A stretch of DNA of 64,000 nt from Thermodesulfobacteriota bacterium (GTDB lineage Bacteria; Desulfobacterota; Desulfobacteria; Desulfobacterales; SURF-7), in assembly GCA_049320885.1 (NCBI GenBank), contig JBMORA010000034.1:47245-111244 (forward strand), written 5' to 3'. Both the position numbers and the translations under genes were made by a program. Under the pieces are notes generated by a model. It had not been told where the DNA came from. It did not search any database and worked only from the letters and a program-made list of their open reading frames with translations. Below are positions 17,552 to 44,100 of the stretch, one piece after another. The first letter of the stretch is position 1. The number at the start of each line of letters is the position of its first letter.

Positions 17552-17557
17552 TTTCTC

Positions 17558-17572: not shown

Positions 17573-17597
17573 GAGTAAAGTTAATCAAAAAGTTATA

Positions 17598-18966: not shown

Positions 18967-18985
18967 CAAAGAAGGATGCAGAAAG

Positions 18986-19615: not shown

Positions 19616-19620
19616 AAACC

Positions 19621-22141: not shown

Positions 22142-22144
22142 AAC

Positions 22145-22849: not shown

Positions 22850-22856
22850 TCGGACG

Positions 22857-23849
22857 ATGAACGGATACCGCGCCCTGATCATCGGCGCCGGCAAAATCGG
22901 CGCCTTTTACGACACCCCCGATTTTTCCGAGGTGCTTTCGCATGCGCACGCCTACACCGCATCGGCGGATTTCCGGCTGGCCGGATTCGTCGATAGCCGG
23001 GTCGAATCCGCCGAGCGAGCCGCCGGCATCTGGGGAGGACGCGCCTACACGAACCTAGCCGAGGCTTTCCGGGCCGAAAAACCGGACGTCATCTCCGTCT
23101 GCGTTCCCGATGATTGTCACGAACCGATTCTGCGGCAAATATCGGAACTGGGGCCTCGTCTGGTTTTTGCCGAAAAACCCCTCGCCGCGGATTCAGCCAG
23201 TGCCTGGGCCATCGCCAGGCTTTACCAGGAAAAAGGGATCCCGCTGGCGGTAAACTATTCCCGTGGATATCTGCCGAAATTGAGACACCTTGCAAATGCC
23301 ATTCATTCCGGTTCCCATGGACGGTTTGTCAATGGCGTCGGTTTGTACGGCAAGGGCCTGATGCACAACGGTTCCCATATGATCGATCTCCTGCTTCGAC
23401 TCCTCGGTCCGTTATCGTCCGCCATCCGGACAGGCGCGTTGACGGACTGGTCGGACCAGGATCCATCCATATCCGCCTCGATCCGCATGCGGAACGGCGG
23501 AACCGTTTTTCTGCAGGCAGTCGACAGCCGCATCGTCACGATTTTCGAACTGGATCTGATCTTCGAGCGCGCCAGGATTCGGCTTGTCGATTCATGCGCA
23601 GCCATCGAGGTATACCATGTACAAGAACACGAAAGTTATCGAGGGTATCCGGTATTCCGCTTATTCAATTCGGGAAGGATGGAGCTGATGAAAGCGCTTC
23701 CCCATGCCATCGATAACATCTGCGCGCATCTCGAGACCGGCGCACCGCTTTCCTGCTCCGGCCTGGATGCTTGCCGGGTCATCGCTGACTGTGAACTCGT
23801 CCGCAACGGAAAAGCGGCCATTTACACCAACGGATGCCTTGGGGCATGA
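22857..23849 (+). CDS. Gfo/Idh/MocA family oxidoreductase
   Basis: IIGAGKIG, FAEKP, HNGSHMID. Confidence 0.88.
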   Translation: MNGYRALIIGAGKIGAFYDTPDFSEVLSHAHAYTASADFRLAGFVDSRVESAERAAGIWGGRAYTNLAEAFRAEKPDVISVCVPDDCHEPILRQISELGPRLVFAEKPLAADSASAWAIARLYQEKGIPLAVNYSRGYLPKLRHLANAIHSGSHGRFVNGVGLYGKGLMHNGSHMIDLLLRLLGPLSSAIRTGALTDWSDQDPSISASIRMRNGGTVFLQAVDSRIVTIFELDLIFERARIRLVDSCAAIEVYHVQEHESYRGYPVFRLFNSGRMELMKALPHAIDNICAHLETGAPLSCSGLDACRVIADCELVRNGKAAIYTNGCLGA

Positions 23850-23859
23850 TGGGATTCCC

Positions 23860-25017
23860 ATGAATACGGATAACGGCGGCAATCTGCAAAAAACCTTACC
23901 AGGGAGATGGCTGTTTGCCGCCGGCGATGTGGGTGGTGCGCGGGCGCTTTTGCCCGTCATCCGGGAATGCGCGAATCAGGGGATACCGTTTGGCGTCCTG
24001 GCCCATGGACAGATTGCAAGTGAAACCGATACGGAATGGACCATGATCGATCCCCCGGAAAAATCAGACACGCCAAGGATGTCCGTCCTGCTGGACAACC
24101 TGAAGGCAGGCGCCTTTGTTTTCGCTTCCAGCGTGCATGACACCTTCGCGCTGACCATGGCAAGGCAGGCGGCCGCTAAACATATCCCGCTGGTTCATGT
24201 TCTAGACAATTGGACGGCTTATCGGCATCGTCTGGAAAATGACGGCCTGCCGCTGCTGCATCCCGACGTCTACACCGCCATGGACAGCCTGGCCTTTGAA
24301 GAAGCCGTTGCGGAAGGTATCGACCCGGCGATTTTGAAAATCACCGGTCACCCGGCCCTGGCGGATCTGGGCCGGCAGCTCGAACAACAAAGTGACAAAA
24401 AACCGCCGGCGTCTTCCCGCCGGCAGATTGTGTTCGTTTCCGAACCGGTCGCGGCCGACCAGAGCGGGGATTCATCCTCTCCCTTTTTCCGGGGGTACAC
24501 GGAAAGCCAGGTGCTTGATAGCTTTTGCCGCGCGCTGCAACCCCACGCCGGGGAAGTAACCGTGTCCATTCTGCCGCATCCCAGGGAAAATCCCGGTCGT
24601 CTGCATCGGACATGGGAGGAGGCCAAGGGTCTCCTGGAAGGAAAACTGACCGACGGGACGGACGGACGGGGTCATGTACTGCGGTCGGATGGAGTGGCCG
24701 GCATGGCGTCCCTGCTGCTCTATGAAGCCTGGCTGGCGGGGAAGCCGGTTATAAGCATTCAGCCGGATCTCAGACGGCATGACCTGCGCATGTTGTCACG
24801 GCGAAAAGAAATTCATTTTGCCGACACCGATTCGAAAATAAACGCGACCGTGAACAATTGGCTTTCCGATATTCGGAAACCCGTAAAACGAAGACCGCAT
24901 CCGGACCTCGTACAGCATCGGGAATCAGCCGCGAAAATCTGTTCCCTGCTGAAAGACATGACGGCGACCATGCCCGGCGCCGAACGCGAAAAAACTGACC
25001 AAGGGAGATTGACATGA
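23860..25017 (+). CDS. Hypothetical GT-B-fold-like protein (glycosyltransferase or nucleotide-sugar hydrolase)
   Basis: GDVGGA, ITGHP, PHPRE, GMASLLLYEAWLAGKPVIS; operon position. Confidence 0.6.
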   Translation: MNTDNGGNLQKTLPGRWLFAAGDVGGARALLPVIRECANQGIPFGVLAHGQIASETDTEWTMIDPPEKSDTPRMSVLLDNLKAGAFVFASSVHDTFALTMARQAAAKHIPLVHVLDNWTAYRHRLENDGLPLLHPDVYTAMDSLAFEEAVAEGIDPAILKITGHPALADLGRQLEQQSDKKPPASSRRQIVFVSEPVAADQSGDSSSPFFRGYTESQVLDSFCRALQPHAGEVTVSILPHPRENPGRLHRTWEEAKGLLEGKLTDGTDGRGHVLRSDGVAGMASLLLYEAWLAGKPVISIQPDLRRHDLRMLSRRKEIHFADTDSKINATVNNWLSDIRKPVKRRPHPDLVQHRESAAKICSLLKDMTATMPGAEREKTDQGRLT

Positions 25018-26324
25018 AATTGGCCATCCATGGGGGAAAACCGGTCAGAAGCAAACCTTTTCCCAGACACACCACCATCGGCGAGGAGGAGAAAACCGCG
25101 GTCGCCAGGGTGCTGGAATCCGGGGTCTTGTCCAAATACCTGGGATGCTGGCATGAAAACTTCATGGGCGGCCCCGAAGTGCGCGCCCTGGAGGAGGAAT
25201 GGGCCGACTTCTTCGGTGTTCGTCACGCCATTGCCGTCAATTCCTGCACTTCCGGATTGTATTGCGCCGTCGGCGCCATCGCCACGGAACCCGGCGACGA
25301 AATCATCGTTACGCCCTACACCATGAGCGCCACCGCCATGGCACCCCTCATATACAACGCCGTACCGGTCTTCGCGGACATCGAAGCCGATTTTTTCTGC
25401 CTGGATCCGCAAGCGGTGGAGAAAAAAATCACCTCCCGCACCCGGGCGATCCTCACGGTGGATCTTTTCGGACACCCCTATGATGCCGATGCCATCAGCA
25501 CCCTTGCCCGCAAGCACGGGTTGTACGTCATCGAGGACACAGCCCAGGCGCCGGGCGCCCGATACCACGGAAAACCCGCCGGCACCCTGGGGGATATCGG
25601 AATCTACTCCCTCAATTACCACAAACACATCCATTGCGGAGAAGGCGGCGTGGTCGTGACCGAAGACGACGCCATCGCGGAACGGATCCGTCTGATCCGC
25701 AATCATGCCGAAGCGGTCGTCGAGGATAAAGGCGTTGCCGACATCGTCAACCTGATCGGTTTCAATTTCCGCATGACCGAAATGGAAGCTGCCGTGGCCC
25801 GTTGCCAACTGAAAAAATTGCCGGACTTGCTCGAAAAACGTCTGGCGAACGAGGCCTGCCTGGCCAAAAAACTGGCTCAAATTCCGGCGCTTATTCCCCC
25901 CAAGACCCGCGAAGACTGCCAACATGTTTTTTATATGCATGCCTGCAAATTCGATGACCGGGAAGGAGGAATTTCCCGGGATCGCTTCATCGCCGCCGTC
26001 CGGGCCGAATTGCCGGTTTTTGAAGGCCGGGAATCCGAAGGCGTCCGTCTGGCATGCGGTTATGTGAGACCGTTGTATCTGCAACCGATCTTTCAAAAAA
26101 AGACCGCCTATGGTTCGCAGGGCTTTCCGTTCCATCATTTCCGGCGGCCGGAGGAAATCACCTACCGCAAGGGGGACTGCCCGGTATGCGAGCGCATGCA
26201 TGAGCGCGAGCTGTTCATCCATGAACTGATGCTGCCATCCCTGTCTGTTGACGATCTGGACGACGTGTTCCGGGCATTTGAAAAAGTCTGGGAAAACCGG
26301 ACGGACTTGAGGGAGCGGTCATGA
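25014..26324 (+). CDS. DegT/DnrJ/EryC1/StrS sugar aminotransferase (PseC-role candidate)
   Basis: VNSCTSGL, EDTAQAPG, SLNYHKHIHCGEGG (PLP Lys), GFNFRMTE. Confidence 0.92.
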   Translation: MKLAIHGGKPVRSKPFPRHTTIGEEEKTAVARVLESGVLSKYLGCWHENFMGGPEVRALEEEWADFFGVRHAIAVNSCTSGLYCAVGAIATEPGDEIIVTPYTMSATAMAPLIYNAVPVFADIEADFFCLDPQAVEKKITSRTRAILTVDLFGHPYDADAISTLARKHGLYVIEDTAQAPGARYHGKPAGTLGDIGIYSLNYHKHIHCGEGGVVVTEDDAIAERIRLIRNHAEAVVEDKGVADIVNLIGFNFRMTEMEAAVARCQLKKLPDLLEKRLANEACLAKKLAQIPALIPPKTREDCQHVFYMHACKFDDREGGISRDRFIAAVRAELPVFEGRESEGVRLACGYVRPLYLQPIFQKKTAYGSQGFPFHHFRRPEEITYRKGDCPVCERMHERELFIHELMLPSLSVDDLDDVFRAFEKVWENRTDLRERS

Positions 26325-26887
26325 CGACACTTGCCGGCGCCATCCAGACGAAACGGCTTTCAATGACGCCTTTCACCGAACGGCATATCAACGATCGCTA
26401 TCTGGGCTGGTTGAACGACAAGACGCTGATGCGATACAGCGAACAGCGCCATCGCCGCCATACACGGGAATCGGCCCTGGAGTATCTGCGATCCTTCCAT
26501 GGGAGCTCCAATTACTTCTGGGCCATAGAGGAGATTCCGGACGGGCTCGGTCATATCGGGAATATCAACGCCTATGTGGACCGGAACAATCTGGTGGCGG
26601 ATATCGGCATCCTGATCGGTGAACCGGCCGCCCGCAAAAAGGGCTACGGCCTGGAAGCATGGAAAGGTGTCTGCGGGTTTCTGCTCGGGGAGCTTGGCAT
26701 GCGGAAGATTACCGCCGGAACCATGGCGCGCAACCTTCCCATGATTCATCTGATGCAGCGGGCGGGCATGATCCCGGACGGTATCCGCAAACGCCACTAT
26801 CTGCTGGAAGGCCTTGAAGTGGATATTCTTCATATGGCCGTTTTTCAGACGGCCGAACCATCCAAGAAAGAGGAAGATGCGTCATGA
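26321..26887 (+). CDS. GNAT N-acetyltransferase (RimJ-like)
   Basis: Y..WLND, HIGNI, ADIGILIGE...KGYG.EAW. Confidence 0.85.
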   Translation: MTTLAGAIQTKRLSMTPFTERHINDRYLGWLNDKTLMRYSEQRHRRHTRESALEYLRSFHGSSNYFWAIEEIPDGLGHIGNINAYVDRNNLVADIGILIGEPAARKKGYGLEAWKGVCGFLLGELGMRKITAGTMARNLPMIHLMQRAGMIPDGIRKRHYLLEGLEVDILHMAVFQTAEPSKKEEDAS

Positions 26888-28065
26888 ATTCCACAACGAA
26901 ACCGCTTTTCGATCATTTGCGATATTGCATCCGGTGCTGCATGCCGGAAACCCAGGAGGGCATCCAATTCGACGAATTCGGCATCTGCCGGGCCTGCCAG
27001 TCCTCCGAACAAAAAATTCACATCAACTGGGTTGAACGGGAAAAAGCGTTGTCGGCCATTCTGGAAAAGGCCCGGAGCCAGGCCGGGGATAATTATGACT
27101 GTATCATCCCCATCAGCGGCGGCAAGGACAGCACTTTCCAGCTCCATGTGCTGGTCAGGGTCTATGGCATGAAGCCGCTGGCGGTCACCTTCAGCCACAA
27201 CTGGTTCAGCCGGACGGGATGGTACAATCTCCAGAACGCCCTGGAAAAATTCAATGTCGACCACATGATGTTCACTCCCAACCGCGATCTGGTGAACCGT
27301 ATCGCCCGCAAATCCGTGGAGGCCATAGGCGATTCCTGCTGGCACTGTCATGCGGGGGTCGGAGCCTTTCCGCTCCAGATCGCCGCCCGCTTCCGGATTC
27401 CTCTGTTGATCTGGGGCGAATCCATCGCCGAATCCTCGGGCCGGGCCTCCTATCTCAATCCGGTCCGCAAATTCGACCGGGAATACTTCACCAAGGTTTC
27501 CGCCAAATTGAGACCGGACCAGATGATCTGCGACACCCTTTCCGCGAGGGATCTGTATCCCTTCCAGGTTCCTTCCGCCGAAGAATGCGAGAAAGCGGGG
27601 ATCTTCGGCATTCATCTCGGCGACTATATTTTCTGGGACGACGAACGCCAGACCGAATTCGTCCGGGACACCTATGGCTGGCGGGAAACGGAAATGGAAG
27701 GCACGTACAAGCGGTATAAAAGCGCCGAGTGCATCATGGCGGGAATGCATGATTTCACCTGCTACCTGAAGCGCGGATACGGCCGCGGCACGTTTCATGC
27801 TTCCGTGGATGTCCGCAACGGTCTCCTGACCCGTGAAGAGGGCTTTTCCCTGGCGGGGGAACATGATCCGGTCCGTCCTGAATCCTTGGATTATTTTCTG
27901 CGGATCACCGGCCTTTCCGAAGCGGAGTTTTATGACATCATGGAAAAAAACAGGGTAAAGCAACTTCAGGGGAAGACCATCCCCGTCAAGGCCAAGAAGC
28001 AACCGCACAGCGAACGGTTGCTTCCTTTTCCGGAACAACTGATCCATGAAGAAGGTAAAAACTGA
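26884..28065 (+). CDS. N-acetyl sugar amidotransferase (PseA/WbuX family)
   Basis: CIRC..P, GICRAC, YDCIIPISGGKDS (PP-loop), K.GYGR....AS.DVR.G..TREE. Confidence 0.9.
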   Translation: MNSTTKPLFDHLRYCIRCCMPETQEGIQFDEFGICRACQSSEQKIHINWVEREKALSAILEKARSQAGDNYDCIIPISGGKDSTFQLHVLVRVYGMKPLAVTFSHNWFSRTGWYNLQNALEKFNVDHMMFTPNRDLVNRIARKSVEAIGDSCWHCHAGVGAFPLQIAARFRIPLLIWGESIAESSGRASYLNPVRKFDREYFTKVSAKLRPDQMICDTLSARDLYPFQVPSAEECEKAGIFGIHLGDYIFWDDERQTEFVRDTYGWRETEMEGTYKRYKSAECIMAGMHDFTCYLKRGYGRGTFHASVDVRNGLLTREEGFSLAGEHDPVRPESLDYFLRITGLSEAEFYDIMEKNRVKQLQGKTIPVKAKKQPHSERLLPFPEQLIHEEGKN

Positions 28066-28102
28066 TCCAACGGCGGCGTTATCCGCATTCGAGGTGCTGG
28101 TT

Positions 28103-29473
28103 ATGAAACATGACGGTTTTCTGGATTTGAGTGTACGCGACATTCTGGACGGATATCGCAAGCGGCGCTTTCTTCCCCGGGATGTGGCCCGGCATTGCAT
28201 CAACATGACCGAAAAACTGGATGGACGCTACAAGGCCTTTGAACGGTTCGATCCTGAAAAACTCATGGCCCTGGCCCTGGATGCCGAACAGCGCCTGGCG
28301 GCGGAAATTCCATTGCGGGCGCTGGAAGGCATCCCCGTCGGCGTGAAAGACATCTTTAACACCATCGATTTCCCCACCCAGATGGGGAGTCCGATCTGGA
28401 AAGATTTCCAAGCTGGTAACGACGCCCGGGTGGTGTATAGCCTGAAACAGGCCGGCGCCTTGATTCCGGGGAAAACCGTCACCGCCGAATTCGCCGTCCA
28501 TACCCTGCAAAAAACCATCAATCCGCATGCGGCGGACCGCACTCCGGGCACATCTTCCAGCGGTTCCGCGGTGGCTGTGGCGACCGGCATGCTGCCTGTC
28601 GCCATCGGCACCCAGACGGCCGGCTCCATCGTCAGGCCGGCGAGCTTCTGCGGGATTTACGGCTGCAAGCCCTCTTTCGGCCTGATTCCGCGCACGGGCA
28701 GCCTGAAAACCACCGACAGTCTGGATACCATCGGATTCTTCACCACCCATGTAACGGATTTGGAACTGGTTTTCGACGTGTTGCGCGTCCACGGTCTGAA
28801 TTATCCCCTCAGCCATCGCATATTGCATGATGAAACCCGCCAGAAAAAACCGGATTCCAGACCATGGCGGGTGGCCCTGGTGAAAACTCACACATGGGAA
28901 TACGCTCCCGAATATGCCCGCGAATCCATCCAGGACTGGAGTAAACGCCTCTCCCGGGATACCGCCATTGAGGTGATGGAGAAGGAATTGCCCGGCGAAA
29001 TGGCGGAAGCCCATGAGGTGCATGCCACCATTTATGATTGCACCCTCGCTTATTATTTCAAGGAAGAGTACAAGAAAAAAGAGCTTGTCTCGCCCATCAT
29101 GAACGCCATCATCGAGCGCGGCATGCGCGTCTCCCCCAACGACTACCAGGCAGCCTTGAAGCGCCAGGAAGTTTTGGCGGCGTCCATGGAAATCTTTTTC
29201 GAAAACGTGGATGCGCTTGTCTGCCTCAGTACCGCCGGGGAAGCCCCCTTGCGGGAAATCACGGAGAAACCGGACCCGGCCCTGATGTGGACCCTGACCC
29301 ATCTGCCTGTAATCAGCGCGCCGGTGTTCAGGTCTCCCGGCGGGCTGCCGTTCGGCGCCCAACTGGCGGCGAGGAGGTATAACGATAAACTGCTGTTCCG
29401 GTTCGCTGAATATCTTCATGGTCGGGATCTGATTCCCACCGGACCGAATCCGCGCGCGCGGATTTTAGAATAG
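28103..29473 (+). CDS. Amidase-signature family protein (GatA-like)
   Basis: GVKDIF (Lys), PGTSSSGSA, GTQTAGSIVRPASFCG (Ser); RBS GAGGTG before 28103; alternative start 28046. Confidence 0.88.
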   Translation: MKHDGFLDLSVRDILDGYRKRRFLPRDVARHCINMTEKLDGRYKAFERFDPEKLMALALDAEQRLAAEIPLRALEGIPVGVKDIFNTIDFPTQMGSPIWKDFQAGNDARVVYSLKQAGALIPGKTVTAEFAVHTLQKTINPHAADRTPGTSSSGSAVAVATGMLPVAIGTQTAGSIVRPASFCGIYGCKPSFGLIPRTGSLKTTDSLDTIGFFTTHVTDLELVFDVLRVHGLNYPLSHRILHDETRQKKPDSRPWRVALVKTHTWEYAPEYARESIQDWSKRLSRDTAIEVMEKELPGEMAEAHEVHATIYDCTLAYYFKEEYKKKELVSPIMNAIIERGMRVSPNDYQAALKRQEVLAASMEIFFENVDALVCLSTAGEAPLREITEKPDPALMWTLTHLPVISAPVFRSPGGLPFGAQLAARRYNDKLLFRFAEYLHGRDLIPTGPNPRARILE

Positions 29474-29518: not shown

Positions 29519-32437
29519 ATGGAAGCTGACGGCCATTTCCTGGAGAACAACACCAAACTGCTGCAACAGCATCACCCGCGGGTATGGGAAGCATTGAAAC
29601 GGTATGCCGATGAACCCATCGGCGAAATCCGGCTCGCCGGAGAAGGGAAACCGACCCTGTGGATGAAGGATGACGCCGGCGCCGAGTACTTCCTTCACGA
29701 TACCAAAAACCCCGAGGCGGAGCTGAAAGACTTTTTCGCCCTGGTGCCGGAAAACACGACGGGCACCGTCATATTCGTGGGCATGGGGCTGGGATACGCG
29801 CCGCTTGCCATGCTCCGGAGCCGCACCCGGATGCGCCACATGCTGATCCTCGAACCGAAAACCGGCTTCTTCCTCCAGGCGCTCCGCGCACTGGATCTGG
29901 GCCCGCTCCTGACCGACAGCCGCGTGACATTCGCCGTGGGTCCGGATATCAACGTCCCGGCCTGCATGCAGCCCATGTCCCGGGCTCTGCTTCTGGAAAG
30001 CACCCATATCCTGAACCATCTGTCCTCGGCCAGAATTTTCCCCCAAATCTACCAGAACTTGTACGACGAAGTCTATAAGCAGGGAAACACCTTGAATGTC
30101 GGGGGCCTCACCATCCGGACATTCGGGCGGAAATTCATTGAAAACCGGCTGCGCCATCTGAGCGCCATCCATCATCAACACCTCCTGGAACATCTCCTGG
30201 GCGCTTTTTCCGGCAAACCGGCGATTATCGTCGCCGGCGGCCCCTCGCTGAACAACAACATTCACCACCTTTGCGCCGCCAAGGGCAAGGCGGTCATTAT
30301 CGCCGTGGACACGGTGCTGCCCGCCCTCCTGGCACACGGTATCTCCCCGGATTTCACCACCGCCATCGATATGCAGGACATCGTCATGGAAAAAATCGTG
30401 GATGTTTCCGACAGGGCCGACACTTCCCTGGTGTGCGCCTCCTGGGTCAGCCCGACCATTCCGAAAATTTTTCCCGCCCGTCAGGTTTACTGGGCCTTCG
30501 CGGCCAAACATATGGAAAAATGGATCAGCGACATGCTGGGCGGCCGGTTCCTGACCAACGGAGCCGGCACCGTGGCCCACCTCAATATGACCACGGCCCT
30601 CCTGCTCGGCTGCTCCCCCATCATCTTCGTCGGACAAGACCTGGCGTACACCAACCGCCAGGATCATGCCGGCCACACGTCTCTCACCCAGAAGGATGAT
30701 CTGACTTCCCTGTATGAGCGCAATGAGATCCAATGGGTGGACGGATACGGCGGCCAGAAAGTCCCCACAACAAGGGGCTGGCTCAGCGACAAGCACCATT
30801 TTGAATGGATGATCGCCGCCAATCCGGACCGGCGTTTTATCAATTCAACGGAGGGCGGTGTCCGCATCGAGGGTGCGGAAGAAATCGACCTTCGGACGGC
30901 GCTTTCCACCTGGTGCCTGGATTCCATCGATATCCCGGCCATTATCGACAAGTCCCACGCCGGCGGGAAAATGCCCGGCCGACGCAAAATGATGGAAGAG
31001 GTCGGGCGTCTGCTGAGGAATATCGCGGGAATCGAAAAAGACATGGACCAACTGGCCGCTGTTTCGGCGAAACTCCAAAAGGAGTTCACCCGTCTTCGGA
31101 ACGGCGGGAGCGGCCACTCCTGTTTCGATTCCCTGCCCATGGAACTCAAGCGGCAGGTGCACACCCTGGACACCCTGAACGACCGCCTGGACAAATCCAT
31201 CGTCTGGGCGCTCCTGGACGAGGTCACCATGGAAGGGCTCCTCCAGAGCGAGCGACTGAACCACGAACTCCGGCAGTTGGAAGGCCGCCCGGAAAAATAT
31301 CTGGAATGGATCGGGAAAAGCATCGAGCGCTTCCTGCTCATCAATCGATGCCGCGGTGATGTCCTGAAGCCCTTCAAGCAACAACTGAAAACCGTGCTGG
31401 AAAGACTGCGGCGGGAAAATCTGCTCCTGAAAAAACTCCAGGAGAAAGACCCCCGATCCGGCCGGTACCTGCTGGAACTGTTATCGCTCTACTATGAAGA
31501 CGGCGACCATGTGCTCCTTCAACGGGCCATCGAGGCAATCGACCCGAAAGAGGCGCGGAACGCCGAAATATCGTTTTACCTCGGGGCCGTTGCAGCCCAT
31601 CAGTCCCTGTTTGAGAAGGCGGAATCCCGTTTCGCCGAGGCCCTGGCCCTCGATGCCTCGCTGGCCGCCCGGATTGAGGACTGCCGGCGAAGGCTCGCGG
31701 ACCGCTATATCACTTTCAGCCGCGAATGGGAGCGGAATGACCGGGACGTGGCCCGCCGGCTGCTGTTCAAGGGTCTCCGTCATTGCCCCGGTCATCCGGT
31801 ATTGGGAAAAACCCTGGCCGGCCAGGCCGCCGAATTGTTGCGCCAAGCGGACGAAGCCGCTGAAAAAAAGACTCCGGCACCGCAAGCCGAGGCTTTCCGC
31901 CCCTGGTGCGAGGCCCTGACCGCCATCCCCGGGCTGGTCGCGGTCATCGGTGCGGAGAAAGCCGCCTTGCTGTACCGCCATTATGGTCACGGTCTGGTGG
32001 CCGAAAACCGGCATGCCCGGGCAGCGGAAGCATTTGCCGCCGCCGCCGACCTTTCGCCCGACGATCCGGCCCTGTATATCTTCCTGGCCGATGCGGCCTT
32101 CGCCGCCGATGATCCGGACCGCGGCGTGGCCTGTCTGGACAAGGCCGTGTCCCTTGACCGCCGGTACGCCCAGTTCTGGGAAACCATGGGGGATAACCTC
32201 GCCGCTGCCGGACAGCCCCGGGATGCCGTTTCCGCCTATGAGCGCTGTCTCCTGACCATGCCGGAACATTTCATCCTCTTCAAAAAGATCGGTGACTGTT
32301 ATATGGCCATGGAGCAACCCCAGGCGGCCCTGACGGCCTACCGGCATTTCAAGGCCAAAACCACCGGCAACAACCCCGCGGGTCCCGATGACTCCGGGCT
32401 TGGAAAAGAGGTGTCGAGTCATGGGACTTCCTGCTGA
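29519..32437 (+). CDS. Maf-type flagellin glycosyltransferase (DUF115) with C-terminal TPRs
   Basis: F..N..LL N-term, G.GLGY, AIIVAGGPSL, GTVAH......GCSPIIFVGQDLAY, INSTEGG..I.G; TPR tail. Confidence 0.88.
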   Translation: MEADGHFLENNTKLLQQHHPRVWEALKRYADEPIGEIRLAGEGKPTLWMKDDAGAEYFLHDTKNPEAELKDFFALVPENTTGTVIFVGMGLGYAPLAMLRSRTRMRHMLILEPKTGFFLQALRALDLGPLLTDSRVTFAVGPDINVPACMQPMSRALLLESTHILNHLSSARIFPQIYQNLYDEVYKQGNTLNVGGLTIRTFGRKFIENRLRHLSAIHHQHLLEHLLGAFSGKPAIIVAGGPSLNNNIHHLCAAKGKAVIIAVDTVLPALLAHGISPDFTTAIDMQDIVMEKIVDVSDRADTSLVCASWVSPTIPKIFPARQVYWAFAAKHMEKWISDMLGGRFLTNGAGTVAHLNMTTALLLGCSPIIFVGQDLAYTNRQDHAGHTSLTQKDDLTSLYERNEIQWVDGYGGQKVPTTRGWLSDKHHFEWMIAANPDRRFINSTEGGVRIEGAEEIDLRTALSTWCLDSIDIPAIIDKSHAGGKMPGRRKMMEEVGRLLRNIAGIEKDMDQLAAVSAKLQKEFTRLRNGGSGHSCFDSLPMELKRQVHTLDTLNDRLDKSIVWALLDEVTMEGLLQSERLNHELRQLEGRPEKYLEWIGKSIERFLLINRCRGDVLKPFKQQLKTVLERLRRENLLLKKLQEKDPRSGRYLLELLSLYYEDGDHVLLQRAIEAIDPKEARNAEISFYLGAVAAHQSLFEKAESRFAEALALDASLAARIEDCRRRLADRYITFSREWERNDRDVARRLLFKGLRHCPGHPVLGKTLAGQAAELLRQADEAAEKKTPAPQAEAFRPWCEALTAIPGLVAVIGAEKAALLYRHYGHGLVAENRHARAAEAFAAAADLSPDDPALYIFLADAAFAADDPDRGVACLDKAVSLDRRYAQFWETMGDNLAAAGQPRDAVSAYERCLLTMPEHFILFKKIGDCYMAMEQPQAALTAYRHFKAKTTGNNPAGPDDSGLGKEVSSHGTSC

Positions 32438-36558: not shown

Positions 36559-36585
36559 TCAAGAAATTCCCCTACCCGCCGATAT
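36559..36585 (+). promoter_or_regulatory. Sigma28 promoter of the giant flagellin
   Basis: TCAA-N15-GCCGATAT, about 170 nt upstream of the ATG. Confidence 0.85.
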
Positions 36586-36754
36586 AGTTTGTGTAGAGAC
36601 GAACTCCCTTTTCAACAATCGGTTACAAAAAATCCAAAGGAGGTGATCGAAACAAATGTAATTTTCCCATCGAAACAATATGTTGTCTTTATCCAGCAAT
36701 GATTTCAAGCAATGGGGAAAGGAATCCCCGTCACCCACACATGGAGGTTAGACC

Positions 36755-39700
36755 ATGGCATTACGTATCAATACCAATATATCAGCAATGAACGCCCACA
36801 AGAACTTGATAAGCACCGATAACAAGTTGTCGGCCTCCATAGAGAGGCTGTCCACCGGTTTGCGGATCAACAAGGCGGCCGACGATGCGGCCGGCATGGG
36901 CATCGCCGATTCCCTCAAATCCCAGGCCCTGAGTCTGGGGCAGGCCATCCGGAACGGCAATGACGGTATCAGCATCGTGCAGACCGCCGACGCCGCCCTG
37001 CAGGAATCCATCAACATCGTCAACACCATTAAAACCAAGGCCATCCAGGCGGCCCAGGACGGCCAGACCACCGATTCCCGGAAAGCCATCCAGGCGGATA
37101 TCGACAAGCTCTTGGAAGAGCTCGATATGATCGCCGAGACCACATCCTTCAACAACCAGAAACTGCTCTTCGGCAATTTCACCAACAAAAAATTCCAGAT
37201 GGGCGCCTATTCCGGTGAAACCATCAGTATCTCCATCGCCTCGGCCCAATCCACCAAAATGGGCCATGTCACCACCGGCCGGCTGGGCATCACCGGCGAC
37301 CAGCCCGGCTCCGTTGAACTGGCCATCTACAGCAACCTGCAGAACCAGAGCTTCCTGGTGGAATCCGTCAATGTCCAGTACAACAACAGCGCGGAAAACA
37401 GCCTGGGCGCGGTGGCCTCAAACATCAACCGGCTGAGCGACTCCCTCGGTATTTCGGCAACGGCCGTGGTGGAGAGCAAGACCAGCCTCAACATCGCCGC
37501 GGGCACCACCGATGCGGACTTCGCCATCAATGGTATCACCATCGGTCAGTTGAATGTCGTGGCCAATGACGCCGACGGCGCCCTGGTCAAGGCCATCAAC
37601 CAGAAAACCTCCCAGCACGGCGTCATCGCCAGCGTGGACAGCGCCGGATACATGACCCTGACCTCCACGGACTCGCGGGCGCTTCAGGTATCCTATGGCA
37701 GCGCCATCGGCAGCGGCCTGGGCACCGACGCCATCCTGCGGGGCTCCGACATGTCCACCCTGGGCTATATCACCCTCAACCAGGAAGGCTCGGCGGAAAT
37801 CCAGGTCCTGGATGTGGGCGACGGCGGGGTCGTGGCCATCACCAGCGATCTCGAAACCGCGGGCACCACCACCACCACCCAGGCCTCCACCCTGGGAGCC
37901 GGATCCACCCTGGCCCAGAATTCCGTTCTGGGAGCCGGCTGGACCGCGGACCAGAACTTCGCCGGCACCCAGTTCGCCGCGCCCATCACCACCACCCTGT
38001 CTTCCACCCTGCTGAACGGTTCGAGCCTGGGACAGAACTCCATCCTGGGCGCCGGCACGGTCATCGGCGCCAATTCCACCTTCGGCGGCGTCGGCACGGT
38101 TGAGGAAGTGGCCAACACCACCGGCAACAGCACCATCGAGAGCGCCTCGACCCTTCAGGCCGGTTCGGTGCTGAGCCTGGCGACGACGGAGGACATCACG
38201 GCGGACATGACCATCGCCGCCTCCAACACCGCCACCGCCGCCAGCACCCTGACCTCCGGAGCCACCCTGGGCGCCGGCACGGTCCTGAACTCGGGCCAGA
38301 TCCTGTCCGGTGCCATGTCGGGCGTGGCTTTCACCATCCGGCAGACCGGCGAGGCCGCCGGGGCCACCTCCATCGCCAGCGGCTCCACCCTGGCCACGGG
38401 CACGGTCCTGAATTCCGGCCAGATCCTGTCCGGCGGCTTGTCCGGCGTGGCCTTCACCATCGGCCAGACCGGTACGGCCCTTAGCGCCACCACCATCGCC
38501 AGCGGCTCCACCCTGGCCACGGGTACGGTCCTGAATTCCGGCCAGATCCTGTCCGGCGGCTTGTCCGGCGTGGCCTTCACCGTGGCCGAAACCGGGACGG
38601 CCCTCAGCGCCACCACCCTGGCCAGCGGCTCGACATTGGCCGTGGGTACCGTCCTTGCAGCCGGTCAGGGCCTGCTCAACGTGGCCGACAGCGTTTCCAT
38701 CGACACCACCGTCACCACCCAGACCACCACCCTCTCCGGTGCCTCCACCAACAGCATCCTGGCCGTGGGCACGACCTTCGTGGCCGGCCACACCATGGGC
38801 TACAATGCCACCGTCAGCGACACCGCCGCGACCGTAGGCTCCAGCACCATTGCCGCCAACAGCACTTTGGCCAGCGGCACGGTCATCGGCTCCGGCACGA
38901 CCTTCACCCAGGATATCTACACCACCACCGGCGTGCTCACCGCCGGCACCGCGGTTTCCGGCACGGTCACCCTGTCCGGCGCCCAGGTCATCGCCGCGGG
39001 CACCACCCTGCAGGGCGGCAGCCGTTTCATCAACGGCACCGTGCTCGCAGCCGGTTCCTCGGTGGATACGGCCACCACCATCACCTCGGCCATCACCGTC
39101 ACCGGCGCCTACACCCTGGAGGCCGGCACGGTGCTCGGACGCAGTTCCAGCATCGGCTCCGGTTCCGTCCTCGGCGGAGACGCCACACTGCTGGCGGCGG
39201 AAACCACGGCCGCGAACGCAGCCTCGGTGCTGGTGGCCGGCCATAGTCTGGGCAGCGGCACGATCTTCAACACCAGCGACGCCGCCGACACCAACGTCCT
39301 GGGTCTGGATGCAGCCCTGGCCACCTCCGGTACCACCGGCGGTGCCGCCACGATCTTGACCGCGGGTCATTCCCTGGCCAGCGGCTCGATCTTCAACACC
39401 AGCAACGCCGCCGACACCAACGTCCTGGGCGTAGATGCGACCCTGGCCAACTCCGGCACCACCAGCGGCTCGGTCGCGGTGTTGACCGCGGGTCATTCCC
39501 TGGCCAGCGGCTCGATCTTCAACACCAGCAACGCTGCCGGCACCAACGTCCTGGGCGTGGATATCACCATCAATGCCGCCACCAACCTGAACGCCAACTC
39601 CAGCGGCGTGCTGGTCACCGGCCATTCCTTCGGCGCCGGCACGGTCCTGCAATCCGGCACCACCGTGGGCACGGCCATCACCCTGCAGAGCAGCGCCACC

Positions 39701-40642
39701 TTGAACGATGACATGATCCTGAGCACCGGCTCCACCATCGCGGCCAACAGCGTCCTGGAAACCGGGTCCGTCCTGTCCGACGACGCCACTCTGGCCGCCG
39801 GCATGACCCTGCTCAGCGACATGGATCTGAACGAGGATACGGTCCTGGCCGCGGGTTCCACCATCCAGAACAATGCCGGAACCGCCATCATGGACGGCTC
39901 CGTCATCGGCGGCGACGCCACCCTGGCGAGCACCATCACCCTGGTGGATTCCCTGGACCTGGCGGCCGGCTCCGTCATCGGCAGCGGTTCGGCCCTGGTG
40001 AACGGCTCCACCCTGGGAGGCGCGGTGACACTGGCCAACGATGAAACCGTCACCGGCAACGGCGGCATGAACCTGGCGGCCGGTTCTTCCCTGGCCGCGG
40101 GCAGCATCATCGCCAAGGGCACCTACCTGACCAACAACATCGTGGCTGCCGACGGCAATACCTACGCCACCGGCACGGTGCTCACGGCCAACATCACCAC
40201 GGCCGGCACCAACGCCATCGGCGTGGAAATGAGCCTGCAGGAAGGTTCGGTCCTGGCGGCGGGCAGCGTGCTGGGCGCCAACCTGAGCTCCGGCGCGGTC
40301 ACCACCGAGGTAACCGACACCGAGCTCAACCGGCTCTCCGATGTGAACGTGCTCACCCAGGAAGAAGCCCAGAAGACCATCGCGGTCGCCAGCGCGGCCC
40401 TGAAGGATCTGGACAAGATCCGGTCCGACCTTGGTTCCGTGCAGAACCAGCTGTCGGTCACCATCTCCAACATATCCACGACCCAGGTGAACATCTATTC
40501 CTCGGAATCCTCCATCCGCGATGTGGATTTCGCCGAGGAAGCCTCCAACTTCACCAAAATGCAGATTCTGGCCCAGACCGGCACCTTCGCCCTGTCCCAG
40601 GCCAATGCCAGCGCCCAGAACGTTCTGAGCCTGCTGCAGTAA
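36755..40642 (+). CDS. fliC: Giant flagellin (1295 aa)
   Basis: MALRINTN, GLRINKAADDAAG, RSDLGSVQNQL, IRDVDFAEE, NVLSLLQ; large T/G/A/S-rich central insertion. Confidence 0.96.
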   Translation: MALRINTNISAMNAHKNLISTDNKLSASIERLSTGLRINKAADDAAGMGIADSLKSQALSLGQAIRNGNDGISIVQTADAALQESINIVNTIKTKAIQAAQDGQTTDSRKAIQADIDKLLEELDMIAETTSFNNQKLLFGNFTNKKFQMGAYSGETISISIASAQSTKMGHVTTGRLGITGDQPGSVELAIYSNLQNQSFLVESVNVQYNNSAENSLGAVASNINRLSDSLGISATAVVESKTSLNIAAGTTDADFAINGITIGQLNVVANDADGALVKAINQKTSQHGVIASVDSAGYMTLTSTDSRALQVSYGSAIGSGLGTDAILRGSDMSTLGYITLNQEGSAEIQVLDVGDGGVVAITSDLETAGTTTTTQASTLGAGSTLAQNSVLGAGWTADQNFAGTQFAAPITTTLSSTLLNGSSLGQNSILGAGTVIGANSTFGGVGTVEEVANTTGNSTIESASTLQAGSVLSLATTEDITADMTIAASNTATAASTLTSGATLGAGTVLNSGQILSGAMSGVAFTIRQTGEAAGATSIASGSTLATGTVLNSGQILSGGLSGVAFTIGQTGTALSATTIASGSTLATGTVLNSGQILSGGLSGVAFTVAETGTALSATTLASGSTLAVGTVLAAGQGLLNVADSVSIDTTVTTQTTTLSGASTNSILAVGTTFVAGHTMGYNATVSDTAATVGSSTIAANSTLASGTVIGSGTTFTQDIYTTTGVLTAGTAVSGTVTLSGAQVIAAGTTLQGGSRFINGTVLAAGSSVDTATTITSAITVTGAYTLEAGTVLGRSSSIGSGSVLGGDATLLAAETTAANAASVLVAGHSLGSGTIFNTSDAADTNVLGLDAALATSGTTGGAATILTAGHSLASGSIFNTSNAADTNVLGVDATLANSGTTSGSVAVLTAGHSLASGSIFNTSNAAGTNVLGVDITINAATNLNANSSGVLVTGHSFGAGTVLQSGTTVGTAITLQSSATLNDDMILSTGSTIAANSVLETGSVLSDDATLAAGMTLLSDMDLNEDTVLAAGSTIQNNAGTAIMDGSVIGGDATLASTITLVDSLDLAAGSVIGSGSALVNGSTLGGAVTLANDETVTGNGGMNLAAGSSLAAGSIIAKGTYLTNNIVAADGNTYATGTVLTANITTAGTNAIGVEMSLQEGSVLAAGSVLGANLSSGAVTTEVTDTELNRLSDVNVLTQEEAQKTIAVASAALKDLDKIRSDLGSVQNQLSVTISNISTTQVNIYSSESSIRDVDFAEEASNFTKMQILAQTGTFALSQANASAQNVLSLLQ
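38270..38650 (+). repeat. Three tandem 123-bp (41-aa) repeats in the flagellin insertion
   Basis: GTVLNSGQILSG..SGVAFT recurs every 41 aa; DNA copies nearly identical. Confidence 0.85.
39235..39570 (+). repeat. Three tandem 126-bp (42-aa) repeats in the flagellin insertion
   Basis: AGHSL.SG.IFNTS.AA.TNVLG.D; His codons at 39242, 39368, 39494. Confidence 0.85.
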
Positions 40643-40690
40643 GCGGGGGCATGAGCGGCACCAGCCGCTCGGCACTCCTAACCTTGTAAC

Positions 40691-40730
40691 CATGAGACCC
40701 CGGGAGCTTTCCCGGGGTCTCATGATTTTC
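40691..40730 (+). terminator. Terminator downstream of the giant flagellin
   Basis: 15-bp stem CATGAGACCCCGGGA / TCCCGGGGTCTCATG, then ATTTT. Confidence 0.75.
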
Positions 40731-40793
40731 CGTCTGGATGCGGGGGTTCCAGACAACGGGTTCCCGGGCTGCCGCTTGGGAACGACGGAACCT

Positions 40794-41043: not shown

Positions 41044-42753
41044 ATGGCATCTCTCGGCACCGTCACCAGCCTGGGCGTGGGCTCGGGTTTCGAATTACAG
41101 AAAATGCTGGAAGAGTTCCGGGCCATCGATGAAATCCCCATCACCGGGATGAAGGATGAAATCACGGCCATCAAGGAGCGCCTGACCAAATACGATGAAA
41201 TCAAGGCCAAACTCCTGGAAATCAAAGCCCATGCCCTGACCCTTTCCCTGGAATCCAATTTCATCGAGCGCAATGTAGCGGTGTCGGACGAGGAGATTGT
41301 TTCCGCCACCGCCATCCAAGGCTCGACCCTGACGTCCACCACCCTGGAGGTGACGCGCCTGGCCAGCCGCAGCTCCTGGCAGACAGCCGGCGTGGCCACC
41401 GCCGACACATCGGTGTACATTCCCACGGTGCAGAATTCCACCCAGGGCTTCGACGATCCGGATCAAGCGGCGGCGGTCACGGAAAACGGGCTGCTTATCC
41501 TGACTTACGGCAGCGGCGAAACGCAAAAAACCATCGGTGTGGGCCTGACCGCCGGCATGACCCTGGATCAGATGGCCGCTGCCGTCAATACGGACAGCGA
41601 AAACAGCGACGGCGCCGGCGGAACGCTCCTGACCGCCGCCACTTTCCAGGGAGAAGACGGCCAATATTATCTGCGCCTCGCCGCCACCGCCGCCGGCAGC
41701 AGCGAGGCCAACCGGGTCGGCATTGCCGAGTCCCCGGAAGAATTTTCCTTTGAGGCTCCCAAGGTGGCCTTTTCCATCCAGGTGGGTTCCGCAGACCCCG
41801 TCATCATCGAGGTGGCCGCCGACACCACTTTCAATGAGCTGGCGGCTCAGATCAATGAAGACGGCAACAATCCCGGGGTCACCGCCGGCGTCATCAACGA
41901 CGGCACGGGCGCGACGCCTTACCGGCTGGTCATCACCGCCGGTGCCACCGGCGAGGACAGCCGCATCCAGATCAGCGGCATCCAAATGACCGAGGTGCAA
42001 GGCGCCGAAGGCGCCTCGCTGAACGCGGAAATCAGCCTGGATGGCATCCTCTACCAGCGCCAGAGCAATTCGGGCCTGACCGACATCATCCAGGGACTGA
42101 CCCTGGAACTGAAAAAGGAGGGCGAGGTCTCCATCAGCGTTTCCGCCAACCAGGAAACCATCCGGACGGAAATCATCGGTCTGGTTACGTCTTACAACGA
42201 ACTGGTCCAGGACATCAAGGCCTCCAGCGCCTATGATAAGGAAGAAGAAAAATGGGGGGTCCTGGCCGCCGCCTATTCCATCAAGGGCCTGCCCAATCAG
42301 CTGAACGGACTGATCGGCGCGGTGACCGGCTCCGTCGGCAGCGTCAACAGCCTGTACGACCTGGGCATGGGGATCAATCGGGACGGCACCATCAGCATCG
42401 ACGAGGAGGTTCTGGACAGTGCCTTGGCCGCTCATCCCGACGACGTGGCGGATTTCTTCCTGAGCGATCCGGAAACCGGCAAGACCGGCCTGGCCGACCT
42501 GCTGAACGAACACCTGCGCTCCCTGACCGGCAACCTGGGACTCATCGGGCAGGAAAAAACCTATGCCGAAGAATCCATCGACCGTCTGGAAAAGGACATC
42601 GAGGCCACCACCGCCCGGCTGGACGAGCGCTATGACGTACTGGCCCGTCAATTCGTGGAACTGGACAGATACGCCGCCTCGATGAAAAACCTTGGTGATT
42701 ATCTCACCAGCGCCTTCAATTCCATGCAGTCATCTGGAAATAATAACCCATAA
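41044..42753 (+). CDS. fliD: Flagellar filament cap protein
   Basis: SLGVGSG N-term, V.RLA, YRLVI....TG, SN.L.DII.G.TL.LK, C-terminal coiled coil ending ..RY..L..QF..LD. Confidence 0.93.
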   Translation: MASLGTVTSLGVGSGFELQKMLEEFRAIDEIPITGMKDEITAIKERLTKYDEIKAKLLEIKAHALTLSLESNFIERNVAVSDEEIVSATAIQGSTLTSTTLEVTRLASRSSWQTAGVATADTSVYIPTVQNSTQGFDDPDQAAAVTENGLLILTYGSGETQKTIGVGLTAGMTLDQMAAAVNTDSENSDGAGGTLLTAATFQGEDGQYYLRLAATAAGSSEANRVGIAESPEEFSFEAPKVAFSIQVGSADPVIIEVAADTTFNELAAQINEDGNNPGVTAGVINDGTGATPYRLVITAGATGEDSRIQISGIQMTEVQGAEGASLNAEISLDGILYQRQSNSGLTDIIQGLTLELKKEGEVSISVSANQETIRTEIIGLVTSYNELVQDIKASSAYDKEEEKWGVLAAAYSIKGLPNQLNGLIGAVTGSVGSVNSLYDLGMGINRDGTISIDEEVLDSALAAHPDDVADFFLSDPETGKTGLADLLNEHLRSLTGNLGLIGQEKTYAEESIDRLEKDIEATTARLDERYDVLARQFVELDRYAASMKNLGDYLTSAFNSMQSSGNNNP

Positions 42754-42764
42754 AGGAGGAAGCA

Positions 42765-43283
42765 ATGGCCGTACCCAATGGATATGCGACGTACCTCAAC
42801 ACCCACTTTGAAGGCATGGACCCCAAAAAACTGATCCTCATGCTGTATGACGGTGCCCTGAAAAATATCCGGTTCACCAGGGAGGCCATACAAAAGGGGA
42901 ATATCCCGAAACGGGGGGAGAGTCTCAGCAAGGTCATCGCCATTGTCACCGAACTGAACGCCAGCCTGGACAGTCGCTATCAGGACGAGCCCATCCGTTT
43001 CCTGCGGGGCCTGTACACCGCCATTCTGACGGAACTGCCCAAGGTTTCCATCACCAACGACATCTCCATTCTGGACCGCACGGAAGCGTATATCGAAGAG
43101 CTGAAAACCATCTGGACGGATACGGTCATGAAAACCAGGGCGCCGGATCAATCCACACCGGCGGTTTTCGAGGAAACAGGGCAAACCGATCACCAGTCCC
43201 GACCCCAGGCCGGCGGTTCGCGCATGAATCCCTATCGCAACCCGATGGCAGCCTGTTATGGGCAGCGATCGGTCTCCGCATAA
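42765..43283 (+). CDS. fliS: Flagellin export chaperone
   Basis: P.KLILMLYDGAL, KVIAIV.EL..SLD, L..LY, ELK..W. Confidence 0.9.
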   Translation: MAVPNGYATYLNTHFEGMDPKKLILMLYDGALKNIRFTREAIQKGNIPKRGESLSKVIAIVTELNASLDSRYQDEPIRFLRGLYTAILTELPKVSITNDISILDRTEAYIEELKTIWTDTVMKTRAPDQSTPAVFEETGQTDHQSRPQAGGSRMNPYRNPMAACYGQRSVSA

Positions 43284-43300
43284 GGAGAAAGCAACGGATT

Positions 43301-43711
43301 ATGAGCAGCCGACTGACCCCAGCCTTGCAGGATGCTTTTGATCGAATGGCGGCGATCCAGCACCGCCACCTGTCCGCGTTCAGCTCCCGCGACCCGTATG
43401 ACCGGGAATCCGATGCAGCGCAACAGAATTTTGAACGCTCCCGGGCCGTGGAAGAACTGAAACATCAACTCCAGGCTTTCCTGAGAAGCGGACTCCCGGC
43501 CGGAGAGGATCGCCGCGAGGCGCTCCGGCGCTGCCAAGAGGGAATCGCGGCCATCATCGCCGGAGAGGCGGCCTTGAAAGAAGGATTGACCGACCGCCGC
43601 CTCTGCCTTAAAAACGAAATGAAACGCCTGCTGAACGGCAGGCGAGCCCTTGGCGGATACGGTCAGGCCGTCCGGAACGACCGGCCTTTCCATGTCAGCG
43701 ACAAGGGCTGA
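43301..43711 (+). CDS. Helical hypothetical protein in the FliT position
   Basis: RBS AAGGAG; follows fliS; helical with C-terminal G.RAL.GY motif seen in FliT/FlgN-like chaperones. Confidence 0.6.
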   Translation: MSSRLTPALQDAFDRMAAIQHRHLSAFSSRDPYDRESDAAQQNFERSRAVEELKHQLQAFLRSGLPAGEDRREALRRCQEGIAAIIAGEAALKEGLTDRRLCLKNEMKRLLNGRRALGGYGQAVRNDRPFHVSDKG

Positions 43712-43737
43712 ACCATCTGTCATGCAGGAGGTATATC

Positions 43738-44100
43738 ATGGCCATTTATCCAACCGATGCCAACAATCTGAAAATTCAAACCGGTCAACAGATGCCGCCG
43801 GCATTCGAGACGGAGAGCTCCCACCGGCAAGCCAACGGGGGAGAAAAGACGAACCAGAACGGCAACGGGAAACTGTCCGCACAGGAAACCAGGGAAATGG
43901 TCGCATCCCTGACCGGGTACATGGAAATTCTTCAGACCAGCCTGAGCTTCAATGTCATGGAAGACAAAGGGCGGGTGGTCGTGACCATCACGAACAAGGA
44001 AACCGATGAGGTCATCCGCCAGATTCCTTCCGAGGAGCTGATCGCCCTCCAGGAAAAAATGAAGGAGCTGACGGGGATTATTTTTAACGAAATCGCATGA
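43738..44100 (+). CDS. flaG: FlaG family protein
   Basis: L.F......GRVVV...NKETDEVIRQIPSEE...G.IF. Confidence 0.9.
   Translation: MAIYPTDANNLKIQTGQQMPPAFETESSHRQANGGEKTNQNGNGKLSAQETREMVASLTGYMEILQTSLSFNVMEDKGRVVVTITNKETDEVIRQIPSEELIALQEKMKELTGIIFNEIA

Follow-up and report, generated by a model that had tools for sequence, protein, structure and literature searches.

How does a flagellin accommodate some 820 residues of repeats within a single surface loop, and what would such an insertion build on the flagellar filament? The question is raised by a gene on the plus strand (36755..40642) of a 64,000-nucleotide stretch of contig JBMORA010000034.1 from a Thermodesulfobacteriota bacterium; the whole of this stretch is referred to here as the window, and all coordinates are positions within it unless assigned to another locus. 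A first-pass annotation, made without database searches, had described the product as a giant flagellin with an insertion resembling a beta-helix. The open reading frame (ORF) is open as described and encodes 1295 amino acids followed by a stop codon, a length beyond the 1000 residues that define giant flagellins. We propose, with a probability that we would put at roughly 70%, that the protein is an epsilon-type flagellin in which hexapeptide-repeat rods of the left-handed beta-helix (LbH) type run out from a surface loop and back to it, giving the filament a thick and likely glycosylated outer layer.

A complete flagellin with a hexapeptide-periodic insert

Both ends of the protein are those of an intact flagellin. 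Flagellin_N (PF00669) matches residues 5-143 at 148.1 bits, against a Pfam cut-off of 26.6, and Flagellin_C (PF00700) matches residues 1211-1294 at 94.5 bits, against 23. The closest sequences in the PDB are Helicobacter pylori FlaB (9yh1, E value 3.3e-101), H. pylori FlaA (9ygu), and Campylobacter jejuni FlaA (6x80). Alignment by phmmer pairs residues 3-353 with FlaB residues 2-361 and residues 1173-1295 with FlaB residues 389-513, placing about 819 residues (354-1172) where FlaB has about 27. A large insert had been recognized at first pass at about residues 370-1180; the insert itself stands, and homology with FlaB corrects its limits to 354-1172. The highest-scoring NCBIfam models are likewise those of epsilon-type FlaB and FlaA, all of them below cut-off because the insert interrupts the models; FlaB model NF010115, run on the whole protein, reached 443.3 bits, under its cut-off of 503.

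The N-terminal D0/D1 helical core (about residues 1-180; 36755..37294, plus strand, as for all parts of the gene) is delimited by Flagellin_N, by helices in an AlphaFold2 model of residues 48-1247 built with 51 sequences (model 1), and by Foldseek matches to flagellin filaments. It is followed by the outer domain common to epsilon-type FlaA and FlaB (about residues 181-353; 37295..37813), which is identified by the phmmer alignment, by Foldseek, and by predicted local distance difference test (pLDDT) values above 90. The insert (37814..40270) is distinguished by the FlaB alignment, composition, periodicity, Pfam matches, and DSSP assignments, and the C-terminal D1/D0 helical core (residues 1173-1295; 40271..40639) by its alignment to FlaB and by Flagellin_C. 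Core helices in model 1 are long, with pLDDT of 80-95, and the whole model aligns with 9yh1 in Foldseek over 323 columns (E value 1.5e-28) at a root-mean-square deviation (rmsd) of 3.5 Å. This search of the PDB is dominated by the flagellin core (D1, D2), lists only flagellins, and is uninformative on the insert. The protein is a flagellin that retains D0 and D1 together with the first outer domain, as do H. pylori FlaB and FlaA and C. jejuni FlaA; it differs from the flagellins of Helicobacter and Campylobacter in its host, which has a G+C content of about 57% and Desulfobacterales-like relatives. Judged from its sequence, it would be a filament protein of a Desulfobacterales-type bacterium.

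The insert has a composition and a rhythm of its own. Across residues 371-1190 (820 residues), Thr makes up 17.7%, Ala 15.4%, Gly 14.1%, Ser 12.3%, and Leu 10%, the first four summing to 59.5%; Asp and Glu number 44, and there is one Pro and no Cys. Lys and Arg together number 4 of 820 (0.5%), so that their near-absence, as first described, is real in this protein, but it does not extend to the family, where the median over 121 proteins is 3.5%. Autocorrelation of aliphatic residues, compared with 500 shuffles, gives z scores of 7.9, 7.6, 5.3, 4.7, 6.4, and 5.1 at lags of 6, 12, 18, 24, 30, and 36 residues, and negative values at lags 3, 9, and 15. This periodicity is far above chance, and controls encoded in the same window lack the lag-6 signal (z of -4.2 for the giant FlgL, -1.5 for the giant FlgK, and -1.5 for FliD). 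The hexad register is continuous, with six of six in 36-residue windows, across about residues 727-820, 949-1040, and 1045-1110, and the runs singled out earlier are all present (TLGAGS TLAQNS VLGAG at 379-395, TIAANS TLASGT VIGSGT at 698-715, and DLAAGS VIGSGS ALVNGS TLGG at 1068-1090). Among 50 hexads taken in register, 47 have an aliphatic residue at position 1, 20 have Gly at position 4, 33 have Ser, Thr, or Ala at position 5, and position 6 is Thr in 23 and Val in 12, giving the consensus L-[GAT]-[AGS]-G-[STA]-[TV], which we take to fit the motif of hexapeptide transferases.

Searches with sequence profiles lead to the same family. Pfam Hexapep (PF00132) matches the insert at 44.7 bits, where the gathering score is 27 (E value 8.2e-12), and LbH_EIF2B matches below its cut-off (E value 7.2e-7). 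When the insert alone was compared with the PDB by phmmer, 16 of the 19 weak matches at E values up to 1 were hexapeptide or gamma-carbonic-anhydrase proteins, the other three being one WD40 protein. For a further profile, residues 977-1190, which cover the conserved C-terminal part, were aligned with 16 orthologues of this segment taken from 13 related loci, and the alignment was trimmed; locus L014, which lacks the insert, was omitted. The best match of this profile in the PDB is the LbH domain of GlmU (E value 1.4e-6), over profile positions 23-200 (about 178 positions), and the next are a PglB-like pilin glycosylation protein, LpxD, LpxA, gamma-carbonic anhydrases, PglD, and eIF2B epsilon and gamma. 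Going by their molecule names, all but 3 of the 60 chains listed (57) belong to hexapeptide or LbH families, and there are no autotransporters, pectate lyases, tailspikes, pentapeptide proteins, or Ig-like domains among these 60. The 17 orthologous C-terminal segments themselves match Hexapep in 13 cases and LbH_EIF2B in 14. These results, together with the predicted strands described below, support the original assignment of the insert to the hexapeptide-repeat, beta-solenoid type of sequence.

Predicted fold and arrangement of the insert

Model 1 (mean pLDDT 69.6, predicted TM-score (pTM) 0.55) is confident at residues 48-477 and 977-1247. A second AlphaFold2 model, limited to the insert (residues 355-1195; mean pLDDT 68.9, pTM 0.51), has pLDDT above 90 at both insert ends, with values of 91-97 at residues 365-434 and 93-98 in the C-terminal segment. 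DSSP assigns to this model 106 short strands of 2-3 residues, whose start-to-start spacing is 6 in 53 of 105 cases and 5-7 in 81 of 105, and strand autocorrelation is 0.50, 0.41, and 0.34 at lags of 6, 12, and 18. Structure prediction, which the first-pass annotation had proposed as a check, has returned periodic strands every six residues, but the middle of the insert, about 500 residues, is predicted with low confidence.

The confident segments coincide with the parts of the insert that are conserved. In an alignment of 50 homologues, occupancy is 0.99 across an N-terminal segment (residues 355-434; 37817..38056) and 0.97-0.99 across a C-terminal segment (residues 1035-1172; 39857..40270, the occupancy extending through residue 1195). 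Between them lies a variable, expandable middle (residues 435-1034; 38057..39856), in which occupancy ranges from 0.18 to 0.84 and hexapeptide periodicity persists. Tandem Repeats Finder detects two tandem DNA repeats, a 123-nucleotide unit present in 3.2 copies (38262..38655; 85% matches, score 523) and a 126-nucleotide unit present in 2.5 copies (39248..39562; 88% matches, score 490). They encode units of 41 residues, or seven hexads minus one residue, and of 42 residues, or exactly seven hexads, and both repeats are recent. The 42-residue repeats each carry an AGHS motif, with a TGHS motif after them (residues 829-960, at about 39239-39634), and these motifs hold four of the few His residues in the insert.

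Several observations weigh against an LbH-bearing filament subunit. Hexapep is a short repeat profile, and a composition biased toward Thr, Gly, Ala, and Ser could inflate its score. In model 1, pLDDT is below 50 over most of residues 489-930, approximately (about 380 residues); the middle of the insert-only model lies mostly at 50-75 (range 30-75), and the mean for either model is only 69-70. Foldseek found no match to the insert model in the PDB at E values up to 0.001, and LpxA, GlmU, and other LbH proteins are absent among the 50 matches listed. The top weak matches are right-handed solenoids, with TM-scores no higher than 0.37: the hyper-glycosylated TibA (E value 5.4e-3, probability 0.75), Ag43, pertactin, synthetic and natural pentapeptide-repeat proteins, and tailspikes. 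In the BFVD viral library the best matches are long Pandoravirus proteins named 'LpxD incomplete domain' (E values 3.5e-4 and 8.7e-4), several others are again right-handed helices or pentapeptide proteins, and rmsd values are 33-40 Å. A feature search of the ESM Atlas with residues 700-1190 returned only unnamed clusters, the best at 0.75-0.77, which is below a meaningful level.

Taken at face value, these structural matches would favor a beta-solenoid of some other architecture, for example right-handed like those of TibA, Ag43, and pertactin, whose main role would be as a surface for adhesion or aggregation. We consider this unlikely. TibA and Ag43 (PDB 4q1q and 7koh), the best of the weak PDB matches, are indeed long surface beta-solenoids in which repetitive Ser and Thr residues bear many sugars, but they are right-handed, are exported as autotransporters, and have longer rungs, of about 19 residues. 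To these the strict 6/12/18 period of the insert is ill suited, and the insert is followed by Flagellin_C at the C-terminus. The structural alignments are poor overall (TMt 0.08-0.37, rmsd 8-26 Å), those with TibA and Ag43 have TMt of only 0.15-0.21, and neither protein shows sequence-profile similarity to the insert among the 60 PDB chains listed, whereas GlmU, LpxD, and LpxA appear in the profile search at E values of 1e-6 to 1e-4. An 841-residue solenoid query also favors long targets, and in BFVD it is long hexapeptide proteins that rank first. Left-handedness of the coil is suggested by the sequence family to which the repeats belong.

A flexible, low-complexity linker, glycosylated in the manner of mucins and folded only at its two conserved ends, would account for the high content of Thr, Ala, Gly, and Ser, for the extent of low pLDDT in model 1, for the low alignment occupancy of the middle, and for the recent tandem repeats. 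It would not be expected to keep an aliphatic residue at every sixth position, yet this pattern continues through the middle, with the register unbroken at residues 727-820 and 949-1040, and is retained in all 121 family members analyzed. The insert-only model has periodic strands across most of the same region, at pLDDT 50-75, and only a single Pro occurs in 820 residues. On the strength of the conserved periodicity and the lone Pro we rejected a disordered linker as the principal explanation, and we regard it as improbable in any form. Least probable is that the insert works as an LbH enzyme or as a binding module, acyltransferase-like or gamma-carbonic-anhydrase-like, displayed on the filament, as profile similarity to the GlmU acetyltransferase domain, PglB/PglD-like acetyltransferases, LpxA/LpxD, and gamma-carbonic anhydrases, and an analogy with protease-domain flagellins (enzyme-bearing flagellins are reported in PMC7643111), might suggest: the similarity is confined to the repeat scaffold at E values no better than 1.4e-6, the NCBIfam enzyme models score far under cut-off (24 bits for the NeuD/PglB family, which requires 160.8, and 21.5 for LpxD, which requires 207), a roughly two-fold length variation with growth by tandem repeats is unlike a conserved active site, and 44 of 60 representative proteins that match the insert are flagellins.

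We therefore return to LbH-type rods, and to how they might be arranged. About 820 residues of hexapeptide repeats are inserted into a surface loop of an otherwise complete epsilon-type flagellin, and they most likely fold as beta-solenoid rods with three hexads, or 18 residues, per coil. Because about 819 residues replace about 27 of FlaB, the two ends of the insert must lie close together in space. The termini of a beta-helix sit at its opposite ends. Since a single loop holds both the start and the end of the insert, the rods would have to extend outward and then return, forming a hairpin or a bundle with its base at the insertion loop; the long, single spikes envisaged at first are topologically impossible if straight, as the chain must return to the point of insertion. 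The base may be formed by the two conserved, confidently predicted ends (residues 355-434 and 1035-1172), and the variable middle would lengthen or shorten through tandem duplication of units of 41-42 residues. If a conserved base bears a distal portion that lengthens as repeats are duplicated, this would account for the length classes seen in the family, in which 91 of 120 proteins listed have 750-849 residues, 15 have 1100-1149, and 5 have at least 1250.

The dimensions of such a structure can be estimated. LbH coils of 18 residues rise by about 0.48 nm each, so that 820 residues would correspond to roughly 45 coils and, folded once, to a hairpin of about 10 nm. Rods of this kind on an assembled filament would form a thick outer layer, and the flagella are probably unusually thick and coated with sugar. 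Elsewhere the LbH has, to our knowledge, been described almost exclusively as a scaffold of enzymes. A more far-reaching extension of the model, which we offer tentatively, is that in a family of Desulfobacterales flagella it serves as a block of adjustable length with a purely structural role: each of a filament's thousands of subunits would bear a hairpin of about 10 nm, its Thr/Ser ladders densely capped with pseudaminic-acid-type sugars and its tip growing by duplication of 41-42-residue units, producing a bottle-brush or sheath-like filament well over 30 nm in diameter that is matched by equally enlarged FlgK and FlgL.

Family distribution and known relatives

The homologous inserts for which the first-pass annotation had suggested a search were found. 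A word-seeded search with the insert retrieved 310 proteins at E values up to 0.001 among 8000 scored candidates. All of the 120 listed contain flagellin Pfam domains, most of them also PF00132, PF25084, or both, and all are periodic: in these and the query, 121 proteins in total, lag-6 z exceeds 3 without exception (median 7.3, minimum 4.07). Named carriers among the 120 are Desulfobacula, Desulfospira joergensenii, Desulfobotulus alkaliphilus, Desulfobacter postgatei, Desulfamplus, Desulfobacteraceae, and Thermodesulfobacteriota, which makes the named ones Desulfobacterales-type; the remaining labelled ones are metagenome-assembled genomes (MAGs) tagged merely as Proteobacteria or Deltaproteobacteria. 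An exhaustive search of 1.84 billion representative sequences gave 60 matches at E values up to 0.001, 27 at up to 1e-10, and 8 at up to 1e-30. The flagellins among these 60 comprise 11 already found and 33 recognized when the other 49 were scanned with Pfam; that scan also gave 7 non-flagellin Hexapep proteins, 1 WD40/TIR protein, and 8 with no family at 1e-5. Two non-flagellin proteins, P0163 (1796 residues) and P0165 (1757 residues), share a hexapeptide region like that of the insert, accompanied in one by a Peptidase_S74 tail-fibre chaperone domain and in the other by RHS repeats, and hint at long structural hexapeptide rods in other surface or fibre proteins.

At the level of genome contigs, 14 related loci were confirmed, of which 13 are Desulfobacterales-type (two of these 13 being MAGs labelled just Proteobacteria or Pseudomonadota), and one Christensenellaceae locus matches D0/D1 alone. 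The closest, L008, has 53% identity. Two tandem insert-bearing flagellin genes are present in L008 (10001-13858 and 14306-18178 of that locus), in L010 (5236-8598 and 10001-13339), and in L011 (8187 to about 10480, and 10856-13339); their differing lengths suggest that rod length varies between paralogues of a single filament or regulon.

Giant flagellins as such are already known. Those of Oceanospirillales, including Bermanella marisrubri and Oleibacter marinus, exceed 1000 residues and were shown to form thick filaments, and their inserts are described as duplicated 'DE' regions with a 'DX' insert that lack similarity to enzyme domains (PMC6248924). The present flagellin is alike in length and in having a large surface insert; it differs in that the insert is a hexapeptide-repeat solenoid and in that a thick filament is here predicted from the gene. 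Supplement 1 of the same paper includes flagellins of 1251 residues and FlgL proteins of 1027-1155 residues from Desulfobacterales and Desulfobacula, given by length only, and the terms 'hexapeptide' and 'beta-helix' do not occur in its text; 'hexapep' and 'Desulfo' are likewise absent from PMC7018530. We found no literature linking flagellin with hexapeptide repeats, beta-helix, PF00132, or solenoid outer domains in a search whose coverage left out most subscription journals, and a full-text search found none on flagellin glycosylation in Desulfobacteraceae. The combination of Pfam domains is already present in public databases as precomputed annotation, so that hexapeptide flagellins are catalogued, yet a description in the literature was not found.

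Among proteins of known structure, an analogy for the insert is found in the LbH proteins GlmU, LpxA, LpxD, PglD, and gamma-carbonic anhydrases, which share tandem hexads of the form [LIV]-small-x-x-[STA]-x. LbH enzymes carry about 5-10 coils, whereas the insert holds the equivalent of about 45, varies in length, and lies inside the subunit of a secreted filament. Its sequence gives no sign of a catalytic site or of the typical trimeric assembly.

Gene neighbourhood, possible glycosylation, and significance

Upstream of the flagellin, on the same strand, lies an island for biosynthesis of a nonulosonic acid of the pseudaminic type (Pse; 17521..29473), identified with NCBIfam and Pfam models. 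Four products exceed their NCBIfam cut-offs, namely PseB (507 bits against 407.75), a Pse-associated methylase (250 against 112), PseF (297 against 205.7), and a WbuX-type N-acetyl sugar amidotransferase (337 against 203). This amidotransferase and an amidase (26884-28065 and 28046-29473, both plus strand) suggest an acetamidino-type modification of the nonulosonic acid. The island is followed by a candidate flagellin glycosyltransferase of the Maf/MptE type (29519..32437, plus strand; 972 residues with C-terminal TPR repeats), which scores 132.8 bits with PF01973, against a cut-off of 34.6, and 31.3 bits with Maf_flag10_N, against 23.5. The genes that come 3′ of it encode a TPR-GT9 protein and an FkbM methyltransferase. 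A Maf gene beside the flagellin is kept in six related loci (L003, L004, L005, L009, L010, and L013), and in H. pylori and C. jejuni a Pse-type pathway and a Maf-type gene likewise lie nearby.

Given these adjoining Pse and Maf-type genes, glycosylation of the insert is plausible. Ladders of Ser and Thr facing outward on the rods would be likely substrates of the Maf-type enzyme, which would use the pseudaminic-acid-type sugar supplied by the upstream island. The caution voiced over the fold extends to this part of the proposal: the NeuB/PseI-like, PseC-like, and PseH-like genes of the island score under their NCBIfam cut-offs, the PseD (Maf) domain model of NCBIfam reaches 98.9 bits, far below its cut-off of 670, and the window covers 64 kb, so that a second, ordinary flagellin may be encoded elsewhere in the genome.

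Downstream of the flagellin and on the same strand are fliD (569 residues), fliS (172 residues), orf136, and flaG (120 residues), at 41044..44100, identified by Pfam FliD_C, FliD_N, FliS, and FlaG; the fliD-fliS-flaG synteny recurs in 11 related loci. The minus strand carries genes for two giant hook-filament junction proteins, flgL (45151-49422; 1423 residues) and flgK (49533-54026; 1497 residues), in which Pfam recognizes only the termini (Flagellin_N/C, and FlgK_D1/Flg_bbr_C, respectively), as well as flgN, flgI, flgH, flgA, flgG, flgF, and a FliK-like gene. FlgL contains about five copies of a unit of some 100 residues with the motif NNRIDF-E, near residues 196, 701, 827, 1077, and 1199. 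FlgL and FlgK are enlarged in related Desulfobacterales loci too. An insert shared by the flagellin and these two proteins was considered and rejected, as neither has a lag-6 signal or a Hexapep match at E values up to 0.001. By tblastn, the arrangement of flagellin, fliD-fliS-flaG, giant flgL and flgK, Maf, and NeuB/DegT/PseF is recurrent in related loci. Between the glycosylation island and the flagellin are two PIN-domain genes (PF01850 and PF13470; 35243-35773, plus strand, and 36061-36489, minus strand), possibly remnants of toxin-antitoxin systems.

The flagellin gene itself is preceded by a candidate promoter, TCAAG-N14-GCCGATAT (36559..36585, plus strand), read from the sequence and resembling the sigma-28 consensus; of 15 related flagellin genes, 5 have a similar TnAAG ... 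CCGATA motif 145-208 nucleotides upstream. A putative ribosome-binding site, GGAGG (36743..36747, plus strand), lies 7 nucleotides ahead of the ATG, and a consensus scan located a terminator-like hairpin 3′ of the stop codon (40691..40724, plus strand), with a 15-bp stem of which 10 pairs are G-C and with a weak T-run on its 3′ side. An ORF of 1112 residues on the opposite strand (37418..40756, minus) was rejected as a gene, as it mirrors the stop-poor, biased frame of the flagellin, which carries the Pfam domains; it most likely arises as an artefact, the repeats being poor in stop codons and rich in G+C (0.68).

Outer domains are the main site of flagellar diversification, and few of their architectures have been described structurally. 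If the proposal is correct, the hexapeptide or LbH rod would be a new architecture for a flagellin outer domain, and would pose a topological puzzle, that of a linear solenoid held within a loop whose ends lie adjacent. Homologues are present in cultured species, Desulfospira joergensenii and Desulfobacter postgatei, and filament diameter, structure, and glycosylation are therefore directly testable. For the sediment-dwelling sulfate reducers that carry these genes, the insert would provide a repeat-tunable means of controlling both the thickness of the flagellar filament and the chemistry of its surface.

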